Shown here: positions 46,519 to 52,311 of the stretch, piece by piece
Layout: each line of letters begins with the position of its first letter
Numbering within the stretch: position 1 is the first letter of the stretch
DNA from: an uncultured delta proteobacterium
Lineage (GTDB): Bacteria; Myxococcota_A; Polyangia; Palsa-1104
Direction of reading: 5' to 3'
Length of the DNA: 64,000 nucleotides
Assembly: GCA_963785725.1 (NCBI GenBank)
Contig: CAWAWS010000024.1
Location: 6,937-70,936 of the forward strand
Translations under genes and position numbers: made by a program
The notes under the pieces: generated by a model
Database searches by the model: none
What the model saw: only the letters and a program-made list of their open reading frames with translations
What the model was told of the DNA's origin: nothing

Positions 46519-47979
46519 TTACTTGACCGTCGCGAGCATGGCGGCGGCGATGGCAGCGGCGCCCCACAACGCGGAGACGACGGCGACGGCGCGCGCGCGC
46601 GGACGATGCGCCGGCATCGTCGCCAGCGTCCACACCGTGCCGGCGACGGCGAGGCCGGCGCCAGACGTCACGAGCGCGGCCGACTGCGCGTTCGAGCCGT
46701 GGTGCCACAACGCCGCGCCCGTGACCGCGAGCGGCAGGCCGACGGCGATCGCGCTCCAGCCGGCGATCGTCAGCGCGTGCGCCGCGCCCTCGTCGGCATC
46801 AGCAGCTGCGGGCGCGGCGAGCAGCAGCGGCGCGGCGACTTTTCGCGCCGACATGACGGTGACGCCGGGCGCGGGCGGCCCGCCGTCGAGCGCGGCGGCG
46901 ACGCGCGCGGCGGCCCGCGCAACCTCCGACGCCGCCGCGCTGCCGGCGGCGCCGCGCGCGCTCGACGACGCCACCAGCCGCGCGCCGCGACCGTCGACGA
47001 CATAGCCCCAAACGGCGACACCGGGACGACCATCGGCGGCGTCGGCGGCCAACACGTAGACCCGACCGGCCGCGAGCGCGACCGCTAGCTGCCCGACCCA
47101 ATGGGCCTCTTCGCTGGCGCGCGAAGCATGCGTGGCATAAGCGAGCCCGACGAAGCGATCGCTGCGCAGCGCGGCCTCGAAGTCGACGTCGATCGCCACC
47201 GGCACGTCGCCACGCGCGAGCGTCACGCGATGCAGCCGCCCGTCGCCGTGCTCACCGGCCGCGAACAGCCGATAGTCGCCCGGGCGCATCGGCAGCGGAC
47301 GCGCGCCATCGACGGCCTGGCCCTCGACGAACGCGTGCGCGCCCGGCGCCGGCGGCAGCGTCACGACGAGCCGCGCCGTCGTCGCTTGCGCCGCGCCCAA
47401 GCGGTCGTGCAGCTGCACCAGCTCGCGCTCGTTGCGACCGGGATCGACCGGCAAATCGGGCACGTTGCGCAAGAGCTCCAGCATGCGCGCCTCGGCCAGC
47501 TGCGCCGCTTCCGGGCCGTGCGTCACTTGATAGGCGCGACTCAGCTTCAGCAGGATGTGCTGATAGAGAGCGCGGGCGTCGCGATCGTGCGCCAAGGTCG
47601 CTTGCGCGTCGCCGAGGCGGGCACGCGCCGCTTCCAGCTCGTCGATGGACTCGCGCACGCGCGTGCCGCTGAAAAACAGGTTGCGCTCGGCTTGCCGCGC
47701 GCGCGCCGCGATCTCGGCCAGCGCGCTCGCCGACAGCTGCGCCGGCGCCGGGCCGAAGCGGGCGTCGATGGCGTCGGCGAGCGCGCGATCGGCGAGCGGC
47801 TGCCCGAGCGCGGCGACGACGTCGGGCAGATAGACGTGCACGTCCGACGTCTGCCCATCGGCGTCGGCGCCGGAATCGGGCTTGGCGACGACCGCTTCGA
47901 TGACGATCGCGCGCGGCGCCGCCGCGGCCGAATGCGCCGCGCCGGTCACGACTGCGCACCAGACGGCGACGCGCTTCAC
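46519..47979 (-). CDS. secreted/membrane hypothetical protein (4th gene of kinase operon)
   Basis: GTG 47979 overlaps the upstream TGA (GTGA). Signal VKRVAVWCAVVTGAAHSAAAA. 3-4 C-terminal TM helices. Confidence 0.55.
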   Translation of the reverse strand: MKRVAVWCAVVTGAAHSAAAAPRAIVIEAVVAKPDSGADADGQTSDVHVYLPDVVAALGQPLADRALADAIDARFGPAPAQLSASALAEIAARARQAERNLFFSGTRVRESIDELEAARARLGDAQATLAHDRDARALYQHILLKLSRAYQVTHGPEAAQLAEARMLELLRNVPDLPVDPGRNERELVQLHDRLGAAQATTARLVVTLPPAPGAHAFVEGQAVDGARPLPMRPGDYRLFAAGEHGDGRLHRVTLARGDVPVAIDVDFEAALRSDRFVGLAYATHASRASEEAHWVGQLAVALAAGRVYVLAADAADGRPGVAVWGYVVDGRGARLVASSSARGAAGSAAASEVARAAARVAAALDGGPPAPGVTVMSARKVAAPLLLAAPAAADADEGAAHALTIAGWSAIAVGLPLAVTGAALWHHGSNAQSAALVTSGAGLAVAGTVWTLATMPAHRPRARAVAVVSALWGAAAIAAAMLATVK

Positions 47980-50506: not shown

Positions 50507-52311
50507 CAGTTGGACCAATCGAGCTGAATGCGATGATGCGCGCCGGCGTCGATGCGCTGGTTGCGGCGCGTGTGGCGATGCAGGCCGACATTGCTGATTT
50601 CGACACTGTGCGCGCCCGGTCGCAGCGGCAGATTGCGCAGCGGCGTCGTGCCGGCCACGCGCCCGTCGACGAGCACCTCGGCGAAGGGCAGCACGGCGAC
50701 GGTCAGGTAGCCGTTGCGTGCGTTGGCCTCCGTCTCGTCGCTGGGCGCGGCGGTGGCGAGCTTCGGCGGCGCGGCTTCGTTCGCCCTGTCGTCGCCGCTC
50801 GTCGCTGCCGGAGCGCCGGCCGGCGTCGCCGCATGGCCGCCCGGCATCGCCGCATGGCCGGCCGTCGTCGCCGCATGGCCGCCCGTCGTCGCCGCATGGC
50901 CGGCCGTCGTCGCCGCAGCGGACGCGCGGGCTGGGTTCGCGGCACCGGGTTTGGGCGCGACGGCATTGGCCACGCCGGTCGTATGCGTCGCGCGACGTCC
51001 AAGCAGAGCGGCGTCCACCGCGCCGTCGGCGTCCGTCGTTCGGCCACCGCCCGCCGGCGAGCCCGCCCCTGCCGCGTTCGGATCATGCGCGCCGTTCGCC
51101 ACATTCGCGGCATGGTCGCCGACCGCGGCGGCGCTCGCCGGGCCGCTCATCGCGCCGCCGGCCGCCGTCACGGAAGCGCGTCCGTCGCCGCGCGTCCTCG
51201 CGTCGCCCACCTGCTCTGCCTCGTTCGTCCCCACCGTCGTCTCGCGCGTCATCGCTCCACTCGTTGTTGCTGACCGGCCTGCCACCGCCGCGACCGTTGC
51301 CGTCGTCTCGCCCGCCGCCGGTCCGCGCGCGAACAGCCAGACGCCACCACCGGCGAGCGCCACCGCCGCGCCCGCCGCGGCCACCGCCACCATCGCCGGC
51401 CAACGCGCGCCCGCGCGTCGTCCGCCGCGCAGCTGCACCGTCGGCCGCTCTTGCGGCGTCGCCGCCAGCGCCGGATCGGCCGTCAGCGGCGCCAACACGC
51501 GCGCCACCTCGCCCATCGTCTGATAGCGCTCCGCCGGATCCTTCGCCAACGCGCGCTCGACCAGCGCCGCCAACGACGCCGGCACGCCCGGCCGCACGCT
51601 ATCGACGCGCGGTGGCCGGTCGCGCAGGTGCATGCTCAAGATGTCCGCCTGCGCCCCGAAGAACGGGTAGCGCCCGGTCAACGCGAAGAAAATGACGACG
51701 CCGAGCGCGTAGACGTCGCTGCGCGAGTCGATGTCGGCGCCGCGGCACTGCTCGGGTGACATCGTCACCGGCGAGCCGATGAGCGTCTGGCTGCGCGTGG
51801 CCAAGCCGTCTTGCGAGGCGCCCGAGGTCAGCTTGGCGATGCCGAAATCGAGCACTTTGACGAAGTCGTCGCGGCCGCTGCGCCGCACGAGGAAGATATT
51901 CTCCGGCTTCAGATCGCGGTGAATGACGCCGTGACCGTGCGCGGCCGCGAGCGCGTCGGCGACCTGCAGCGCGATGCGGGCCACGCGATGCGGCGCCATC
52001 GGGCCGTGCGTGCGGACCGCTTCGTCGACGCCGACGCCGTCGAGAAACTCGAGCACCAAGTACGGCTGACCGCTGACGTAACCGAAGTCGAGCGCGCGCA
52101 CGATGTTCTCGTGATCGATCTCGTTGCCGATGGAGGCTTCGCGGCGAAAGCGGGTCGCGACATCGGGGTGCGCATCGGTGCGCGTGACCAGGATCTTGAT
52201 GGCGACCGGAAGCTTCGTGACCAGATGCCGCGCCTTGTAGACGACGCCGAATCCGCCCTCGCCCAGCTTCTCCACCAGCTCGTACTTGTCGATCGTACGC
52301 GGCGACTCCAC
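50506..52311 (-). CDS. Ser/Thr protein kinase-TM-PEGA
   Basis: GTG 52311. GEGGFGVV, VAIKIL, HRDLKPENI, DFGIAK and SPVTMSPE all intact. TM WPAMVAVAAAGAAVALAGGGVWLFA. C-terminal PEGA-like YLTVAVLPFAEVLVDG. Confidence 0.9.
   Translation of the reverse strand: MESPRTIDKYELVEKLGEGGFGVVYKARHLVTKLPVAIKILVTRTDAHPDVATRFRREASIGNEIDHENIVRALDFGYVSGQPYLVLEFLDGVGVDEAVRTHGPMAPHRVARIALQVADALAAAHGHGVIHRDLKPENIFLVRRSGRDDFVKVLDFGIAKLTSGASQDGLATRSQTLIGSPVTMSPEQCRGADIDSRSDVYALGVVIFFALTGRYPFFGAQADILSMHLRDRPPRVDSVRPGVPASLAALVERALAKDPAERYQTMGEVARVLAPLTADPALAATPQERPTVQLRGGRRAGARWPAMVAVAAAGAAVALAGGGVWLFARGPAAGETTATVAAVAGRSATTSGAMTRETTVGTNEAEQVGDARTRGDGRASVTAAGGAMSGPASAAAVGDHAANVANGAHDPNAAGAGSPAGGGRTTDADGAVDAALLGRRATHTTGVANAVAPKPGAANPARASAAATTAGHAATTGGHAATTAGHAAMPGGHAATPAGAPAATSGDDRANEAAPPKLATAAPSDETEANARNGYLTVAVLPFAEVLVDGRVAGTTPLRNLPLRPGAHSVEISNVGLHRHTRRNQRIDAGAHHRIQLDWSN
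50824..50917. repeat. 21-bp in-frame tandem repeat, about 4.5 copies
   Basis: CGTCGCCGCATGGCCG(C/G)CCG(G/T) units at 50824, 50845, 50866, 50887 and 50908. Encodes GHAATT(A/G) heptads in the kinase linker. Confidence 0.85.

Follow-up and report, generated by a model that had tools for sequence, protein, structure and literature searches.

A 64,000-nucleotide stretch of contig CAWAWS010000024.1 (positions 6,937 to 70,936 in GenBank assembly GCA_963785725.1), taken from an uncultured soil myxobacterium of the Polyangia and called the window throughout, carries a conserved and previously undescribed four-gene cassette headed by a Hanks-type Ser/Thr protein kinase. The best-supported reading of this cassette is a kinase sensor controlled by its own accessory proteins. 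The genes, numbered in the order of transcription, encode a kinase with a periplasmic PEGA domain (gene 1), an exported and membrane-anchored PEGA protein (gene 2), a predicted Cys-rich beta-helix lipoprotein (gene 3), and a TPR-containing membrane protein (gene 4). Three of the four products, those of genes 1, 2 and 4, bear PEGA-type sandwiches. We regard the chances as evenly balanced that the four products make up a receptor-kinase assembly of several subunits in the inner membrane and periplasm, with the lipoprotein as its sensing subunit.

Myxobacteria possess hundreds of Hanks kinases, many of which end in a PEGA domain, and we know of no established role for the C-terminal PEGA domain in these myxobacterial kinases. 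Literature searches on PEGA domains, PEGA kinases, and choice-of-anchor Q proteins yielded neither a characterised kinase with a PEGA ectodomain nor this cassette.

Organization of the cassette

The four open reading frames (ORFs) lie on the minus strand at the coordinates listed in Table 1. The ORF listing and the sequence itself both agree on these positions, which are those assigned by an earlier annotation made from the letters of the window without database searches (the sequence-only reading). Gene 1 encodes 601 amino acids (aa) from a GTG start, gene 2 382 aa from ATG, gene 3 460 aa from ATG, and gene 4 486 aa from GTG, and these start codons are consistent with the N-termini of homologues. 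Local G+C content is 73-75%, so that long spurious ORFs are common on both strands; the four frames chosen are those with homologues. Consecutive genes overlap by 1, 1 and 4 nucleotides (nt), at junctions that read aacTGATGcgg, ttcTGATGcgc and ccGTGAagc. A search for promoter-like or terminator-like sites inside the operon found none, and the 3' intergenic region shows no significant structure (z=-0.07).

Upstream of the kinase gene, a promoter-like pair consists of TTGACA (52375-52370) and TAAAAG (52351-52346) with an 18-nt spacer between them. It is followed by an AT-rich palindrome, GTGATTT-A-AAACCAC (52344-52330), with 18 nt between its end and the GTG of the kinase gene. In loci L008 and L006 the TTGACA is invariant, and the palindrome is identical in the former and recognisable in the latter. 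A single operon transcribed from this one conserved promoter is the best explanation for the arrangement of the four genes.

Table 1. Features of the kinase cassette and its upstream region, with positions in the window
Feature	Coordinates	Strand	Basis
Gene 1, Hanks-type Ser/Thr kinase, transmembrane helix, tether and PEGA	50506..52311	-	Pkinase, catalytic motifs, PEGA, PDB match
Gene 2, signal peptide, alpha/beta domain, PEGA and membrane hairpin	49358..50506	-	AlphaFold2 model, Foldseek
Gene 3, predicted lipoprotein, Cys-rich region and predicted right-handed beta-helix	47976..49358	-	Lipobox, homologue family matches, alignment
Gene 4, signal peptide, TPR-like, PEGA-like and alpha/beta domains, three transmembrane helices	46519..47979	-	AlphaFold2 model, HMMER family, Foldseek
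Probable operon promoter and palindrome	52330..52375	-	Sequence; TTGACA and palindrome core kept in L008 and L006
XRE-1, HTH_31/HTH_3 regulator, divergent	52612..53493	+	HTH_31 3.6e-12
XRE-2, paralogous HTH regulator	53593..53958	+	HTH_31 5e-12

Conservation of the cassette

Several related contigs keep the four genes together, tightly spaced and in an unchanged order, even where identity has fallen to 30-50%. The absence of co-conservation, which the sequence-only reading named as grounds for refuting it, is therefore not what these contigs show. The order kinase-2-3-4 occurs in at least five other sets of soil metagenome contigs. It is present in L008, was read from gene tables for the contigs that encode proteins P0011 and P0015, and is present across L006 and L001, which come from one sample and are separated by a contig break inside gene 3. 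Partial arrangements include genes 2-3-4 on the contig of P0014 and genes 3-4 in L003, from a Polyangia metagenome-assembled genome. By tblastn, the kinase, gene 2 and gene 3 products are 88%, 85% and 77% identical to their counterparts in L008, and 66%, 54% and 58% identical in L006; for gene 4 the values are 84% in L003 and 45% in L001. Scans of 185,579 species genomes, one made with the gene 4 product (P0004) and another with alignment A2, found no relative, and a scan of metagenome contigs found one locus of 1.4 kb.

Locus L010, with a distant version of the cassette, is the most informative comparison: there the kinase is 51% identical in its PEGA segment and 42% in its catalytic C-lobe, gene 2 is 36% identical, and gene 3 is 30% identical. 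In L010, genes 1-3 are followed by three tandem gene 4 paralogues (4560-10020; 624, 543, and 621 aa) at 37-42% identity. Downstream of these (11030-12247) lies a degenerate kinase-like gene of 405 aa with a weak partial Pkinase match, and its product may be a pseudokinase.

Neighbouring genes are separated by overlaps or by gaps of 11-17 nt at all loci except L008, where a spacer of 159 nt (2867-3025) runs from the kinase stop codon (TAG) to the start of gene 2, a junction that in the window is a 1-nt overlap. The sequence-only reading had proposed that the four products are made stoichiometrically. The overlaps do suggest translational coupling, yet the L008 spacer, found next to a kinase 88% identical to that of the window, and the short gaps at other loci argue against holding the proposal firmly; stoichiometric production would have to be read from the overlaps.

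The closer loci also share outer neighbours, namely genes for an LPG_synthase_TM-like protein, a 138-aa protein, an ABC_sub_bind protein, and a histidine kinase, and they must therefore be viewed as orthologous loci of one lineage.

Gene 1: a bitopic kinase with a tethered PEGA-like domain

Pfam model PF00069 (Pkinase) matches residues 7-280 of the gene 1 product with E=1e-47 (163.2 bits, where the cut-off is 31.7). All of the catalytic motifs expected of a kinase are present: GEGGFG at residue 17, VAIK at 36-39, HRDLKPEN at 131, DFG at 155, and SPE at 185. The domain is predicted to be cytoplasmic and, with these motifs intact, catalytically competent. The closest solved structures, by PDB sequence match, are catalytic domains of M. 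tuberculosis PknB (2.7e-51). A single transmembrane (TM) helix at about residues 304-328 leads into a periplasmic tether of about 206 residues, mostly Ala, Gly and Thr, and the C-terminus is formed by some 70 residues that resemble PEGA (about 533-601); this segment alone, in a profile search against PDB sequences, retrieved nothing significant. In L010 the PEGA segment is no less conserved than the catalytic C-lobe, which fits a role in protein docking, and a docking domain fits the kinase ectodomain better than a ligand pocket would.

Within the tether, an in-frame tandem repeat (50815-50917; 21 nt, 4.9 copies) encodes AGHAATT. Kinase orthologues range from 458 to 601 aa in length, and the tether is strongly length-variable among them. 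A second Hanks kinase domain is encoded elsewhere in the window (25068-25964, plus strand), with 39% identity to gene 1 across 303 aa, and no homologue of genes 2-4 lies near it.

Gene 2: an envelope-adaptor fold joined to a PEGA-like sandwich

The AlphaFold2 model of the gene 2 product (predicted local distance difference test score, pLDDT, 74) consists of an alpha/beta domain at residues 25-156, a PEGA beta-sandwich at 163-219, and two hydrophobic helices at 227-258 and 275-300. The loop that joins the two helices holds an invariant pair of Cys residues, and a variable, disordered tail then precedes a conserved terminal Phe. Across 14 homologues none of the eight Cys residues varies, and the last residue is nearly always Phe. 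Foldseek matched the first domain to TolB, PelC, LpoB, FlgT, and GNA1162 (E 3e-5 to 1e-3, TMt up to 0.59), while a profile of gene 2 searched against PDB sequences found nothing significant. The N-terminal domain thus has the small alpha/beta envelope-adaptor fold common to PelC, LpoB, the N-terminal domain of TolB (TolB-N), FlgT, and GNA1162. Gene 2 has no sequence similarity to these proteins, it does not encode a lipoprotein, and its adaptor domain is fused to PEGA and to a membrane hairpin. Membership of the PelC family was considered and rejected; the fold fits, but the signal peptide is of the AxA type without a lipobox Cys, and no pel genes are nearby.

The tail of gene 2 also contains an in-frame tandem repeat (window 49459-49544; 27 nt, 3.1 copies; encodes "APWSRAAV."). 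Orthologous products range from 315 to 438 aa, with strong length variation in the tail segment. Repeat expansion seems to set linker length both in this tail and in the tether of gene 1.

Comparison of the gene 2 and gene 4 families by hhalign detected a common C-terminal module (probability 81%, E=1.2e-5). It runs from a helix through a Cys-containing loop (YDxRxACxxxRCxYRYDT) and a TM helix to basic residues and a final Phe (...RF or ...SF). The module is found at the C-terminus of gene 2 (49358-49800) and at the C-termini of the distant gene 4 relatives P0044-P0046; in the gene 4 product of the window, a third helix stands in its place. No known model matched the module. In its arrangement it resembles the tripartite sorting signals found at protein C-termini.

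Gene 3: a Cys-rich protein with a lipobox and a predicted beta-helix

The signal peptide of the gene 3 product ends in a lipobox, LVGC, at Cys17 (MRACALVLAVATLLVGC), in agreement with the pattern [LVI][ASTVI][GAS]C. Cys17 is conserved in at least 90% of homologues, and gene 3 is predicted on these grounds to encode a lipoprotein. The product contains 31 Cys residues, about 22 of which fall within the first 190 residues, in a Cys-rich region of about 180 aa. Twenty-one homologues were found, most of them carrying PF27011 (DUF8331); precomputed matches to that model exist for P0007, 97% identical to gene 3, and for 14 other homologues. Family members also match Beta_helix (9 of 21), NosD (3 of 21), and the choice-of-anchor-Q model NF041518 (6 of 21), the last of which does not match gene 3 itself. 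The alignment contains an invariant ladder of Asn residues (N331, N365, and N386) and an invariant C-terminal cap, D..H...D.DG..RP...D.GA.E, of the choice-of-anchor-Q type (DxDGxxRP...DxGAxE). Ladder and cap are common to gene 3 and to its homologues that match these models (NF041518, PF13229, and PF27011), which stand for families none of which is known to have a tested function.

The sequence-only reading had suggested a glycan-binding or lyase-like role for the beta-helix. The analysis does not support this suggestion: the only enzyme-like signal, a match to the polysaccharide lyase family 6 (PL6) alginate lyase 7dmk, is weak and non-significant (E=0.026), and the gene 3 profile found nothing significant among PDB sequences.

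In locus L005 (1570-8177), a gene 3 homologue at 51% identity is followed directly, at the position of gene 4, by a large serine recombinase gene and small phage-like genes (Mom-like, Peptidase_M23), and a prophage may have inserted at the gene 3/gene 4 junction.

Gene 4: a TPR-like and PEGA-like protein with three predicted membrane helices

The AlphaFold2 model of gene 4 (pLDDT 87, predicted template modelling score 0.73) comprises a TPR-like helical domain at residues 46-197, a PEGA-like sandwich at 202-262, an alpha/beta domain made of residues 271-375 and a strand at 23-31, and TM helices within 397-485. The sequence-only reading correctly saw a signal peptide and C-terminal TM helices, of which there are three, but missed the TPR and PEGA content. 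From the order of its secondary-structure elements, the alpha/beta domain may have a TolB-N-like topology.

A word-indexed search found only two homologues of gene 4, while a full HMMER search found 95 representative clusters, mostly of 450-520 aa. Among 40 members tested, 13 match PEGA, the best at 2.1e-10, and several match TPR models. Gene 4 itself has no match to PF08308 (PEGA), and its assignment comes from these family members together with the beta-sandwich of the model. The gene 4 profile found nothing significant among PDB sequences. Foldseek with the whole model gave local matches only, to PEGA-like sandwiches, which leaves the alpha/beta domain unassigned; the sandwich matches the 77-residue chain D of PDB entry 9k1u, the RtkS-PpkA complex (E=0.013, TMt 0.63). 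Judging from its length alone, this chain would be the kinase ectodomain of that complex.

The earlier statement that three of the four proteins have no assignable function still holds for function. It fails for fold, since gene 2 has a TolB-N/PelC/LpoB-like domain and PEGA, and gene 4 has TPR, PEGA and alpha/beta domains. The further proposal of a trans-envelope complex receives no help from the gene content: the cassette encodes neither an outer-membrane barrel nor a secretin, and three of the products are anchored in the inner membrane, so that a trans-envelope arrangement would be a conjecture about the assembly.

Comparison with characterised receptor kinases

Two known switches resemble the cassette in their logic. 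In the H1 type VI secretion system (T6SS) of Pseudomonas aeruginosa, the TagQ/TagR lipoprotein/periplasmic complex dimerises the kinase PpkA (PMC13713981), and in Serratia marcescens the periplasmic protein RtkS binds the periplasmic domain of PpkA (PMC6082577; PDB 9k1u). Both systems, the former with TagST as well, combine a bitopic Hanks kinase that has a small periplasmic domain with co-encoded accessory proteins (a lipoprotein and a periplasmic or membrane protein), as here. The differences are considerable. The cassette has no T6SS genes, no FHA target of the Fha1 type, no PppA phosphatase, and no counterpart of the TagST ABC pair; its accessory proteins are unrelated in sequence to TagQ, TagR, and RtkS, being instead two membrane-anchored PEGA adaptors and a Cys-rich beta-helix lipoprotein. 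Membership in the T6SS threonine phosphorylation pathway was rejected: neither the cassette nor the flanks examined contain any core gene of the T6SS, any FHA target, or a PP2C phosphatase. The likeness to the PpkA switches, which consists of logic and one fold match, is best treated as an analogy and not as membership.

The receptor-type kinases PknB, PrkC, and StkP, with PASTA ectodomains, and PknS of Xanthomonas citri, a receptor-type Hanks kinase with TPRs (PMC13147305), have the kinase fold and bitopic topology of gene 1, and need their ectodomains for signalling. Unlike PknB, PrkC, and StkP, gene 1 has no PASTA repeats and exposes one PEGA sandwich carried by a disordered tether; unlike in PknS, the TPR part is found on a separate protein, that of gene 4. 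Assignment of gene 1 to the PASTA kinases was rejected, as NF033483 scores 262.8 bits against a cut-off of 450 and matches the kinase domain only.

Divergent XRE regulators and palindromes

The sequence-only reading was right about the four genes as a unit but overlooked two XRE genes and an operator-like palindrome upstream of them. These regulator genes, XRE-1 and XRE-2 (Table 1), are conserved at every locus that reaches that far, and orthologues of XRE-1 occupy the same position in L006, in L008, and on the contigs of P0011 and P0015. The true start of XRE-1 is possibly the ATG at 52618. A perfect palindrome, TGAGTTT-T-AAACTCA (53491-53505), lies upstream of XRE-2, is unique in the window (0.03 occurrences expected by chance), and is conserved in L006 and L008. 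It shares the core GTTTTAAA with the kinase-proximal palindrome, the arms of the two being different, and a degenerate operator consensus matched the XRE-2 site only. XRE-1 and XRE-2 probably bind the operator-like palindrome at the kinase promoter.

XRE-1 is 293 aa long in the window and 110-160 aa in its orthologues; its additional tail, which is of low complexity and encoded by tandem repeats of 39 nt and 7 nt, contains a hydrophobic run of Gly, Ala, and Val at residues 98-134. On the opposite strand, a 246-aa ORF with no family match (window 53876-54616, minus strand) overlaps the end of XRE-2; at this G+C content it is uncertain whether it is a real gene. An unannotated gene of 287 aa occupies a similar position in L006.

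In locus L004 (2019-6103), two gene 3 paralogues flank a gene for a 203-aa TPR protein, with a divergent XRE gene upstream and no kinase. The XRE regulator there is 44% identical to XRE-1 and XRE-2, and the intergenic region carries a different AT-rich repeat. An association of XRE regulator, beta-helix lipoprotein, and TPR protein therefore exists without a kinase.

A proposed receptor-kinase assembly and its alternatives

The mechanism we propose begins with the kinase, whose cytoplasmic Hanks domain would hold a small PEGA sandwich at the end of a long, flexible periplasmic tether. The products of genes 2 and 4 would be membrane-anchored adaptors: the kinase ectodomain would sit against their PEGA and TPR surfaces, and they would also dock the Cys-rich beta-helix lipoprotein. 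As a predicted exported, disulfide-rich beta-helix lipoprotein, the gene 3 product is the candidate for the ligand-facing part, and would probably be the subunit that binds a ligand or senses. When the lipoprotein changes, for instance because it binds a polymer, whether extracellular or of the envelope, or because the envelope is damaged, the clustering of the kinase might alter, and altered clustering would act as the switch for autophosphorylation and for the phosphorylation of targets in the cytoplasm.

Several observations weigh against this assembly. The PEGA segments of genes 1 and 2 score 18.3 and 17.0 bits, below the PF08308 cut-off of 20.8; their L010 orthologues clear it, with 27.8 and 40.2 bits, which speaks for the PEGA calls. 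Gene 3 likewise scores below threshold against Beta_helix (PF13229; 18.4 bits, cut-off 25.9). The full cassettes all come from one narrow, uncultured Polyangia lineage, and simple descent accounts for some of the synteny. Kinase-free homologues of gene 3, at 41-51% identity, are P0019, which has only a 258-aa partner gene, and those in L004 and L005, and the gene 4 relative P0045 stands alone, also without one; neither gene, therefore, strictly needs a kinase. No phosphatase, FHA protein, or obvious substrate is found in the gene content of the cassette. The sequencing runs that hold the locus are all soil-metagenome DNA, with no RNA run among them. What the data show directly is the gene structure, the folds, the intact catalytic motifs, the co-conservation, and the conserved promoter and palindrome; the physical complex, the direction of signalling, the ligand, and control by the XRE proteins are things that we infer.

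An alternative we judge unlikely makes the cassette a periplasmic scaffold that processes or exports a surface polymer, with gene 2 as a PelC-like ring, gene 4 as a TPR scaffold, gene 3 as a glycan lyase, epimerase, or hydrolase, and the kinase regulating from inside rather than sensing. TPR and beta-helix proteins do recur in the synthase-dependent systems for exopolysaccharides, Pel and alginate among them, and the N-terminal domain of gene 2 matches subunits of the PelC dodecamer (TMt 0.51-0.58). The same fold, however, also matches TolB and LpoB, which are not export proteins, and gene 2 lacks the lipobox of PelC. An LPG_synthase_TM/flippase-like gene lies nearby, but the cassette itself has no glycosyltransferase, polymerase, or outer-membrane porin. 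The gene 3 profile matches, to the PL6 enzyme and to another polysaccharide lyase, point toward polymer processing without reaching significance.

It is rather improbable that the genes are just co-transcribed neighbours kept together by descent, a generic Myxococcota PEGA kinase beside unrelated envelope proteins that form no complex with it. The wider synteny shared by most full cassettes, the kinase-free contexts of gene 3 and gene 4 homologues, and the L008 spacer after the kinase gene would all be expected in that case. Descent alone accounts poorly, however, for the retention of the kinase-2-3-4 order in L010 at 30-50% identity and in a different downstream context, for tight spacing across loci, for PEGA in three of the products, and for the C-terminal module common to the gene 2 and gene 4 families.

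An anti-phage defence kinase of PD-T4-6 or MADS type, with its neighbours as accessory factors, is very improbable: PADLOC models for PD-T4-6 (E=5.7e-85) and mad6 (also strong) match the kinase, the NCBIfam model antiphage_MADS6 matches it in part, and XRE/capH-like regulators adjoin, but these matches are confined to the generic catalytic domain (residues 7-283; NF047741 161.7 against a cut-off of 460), genes 2-4 match no defence model in PADLOC, no methylase or nuclease partner is present, and a TM helix, periplasmic PEGA, and exported partners are unlike a cytoplasmic phage sensor. As generic kinase-domain matches, the PADLOC results led us to reject PD-T4-6 as an identity for gene 1.

Significance

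The reading of the cassette as an accessory-protein-controlled kinase sensor has consequences beyond this locus. In a conserved operon, a PEGA kinase is accompanied by a lipoprotein and a pair of PEGA adaptors, and this offers a testable route of signal input through accessory proteins, as in the PpkA switches, rather than through direct ligand binding. Folds are also assigned here to two protein families that previously had none. A more speculative extension, to which we give only limited credence, is that the three PEGA membrane proteins (the kinase, the PelC/TolB-N-like adaptor, and the TPR adaptor) form a periplasmic platform presenting an exchangeable Cys-rich lipoprotein "antenna", in this cassette a beta-helix, that such platforms constitute an undescribed class of Polyangia machine, and that the Cys-loop/TM/...RF module of the adaptors is a new membrane-assembly or sorting signal. 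If this is true, a modular platform of this kind would account for signal perception by some of the orphan PEGA kinases, which number in the hundreds in myxobacteria.

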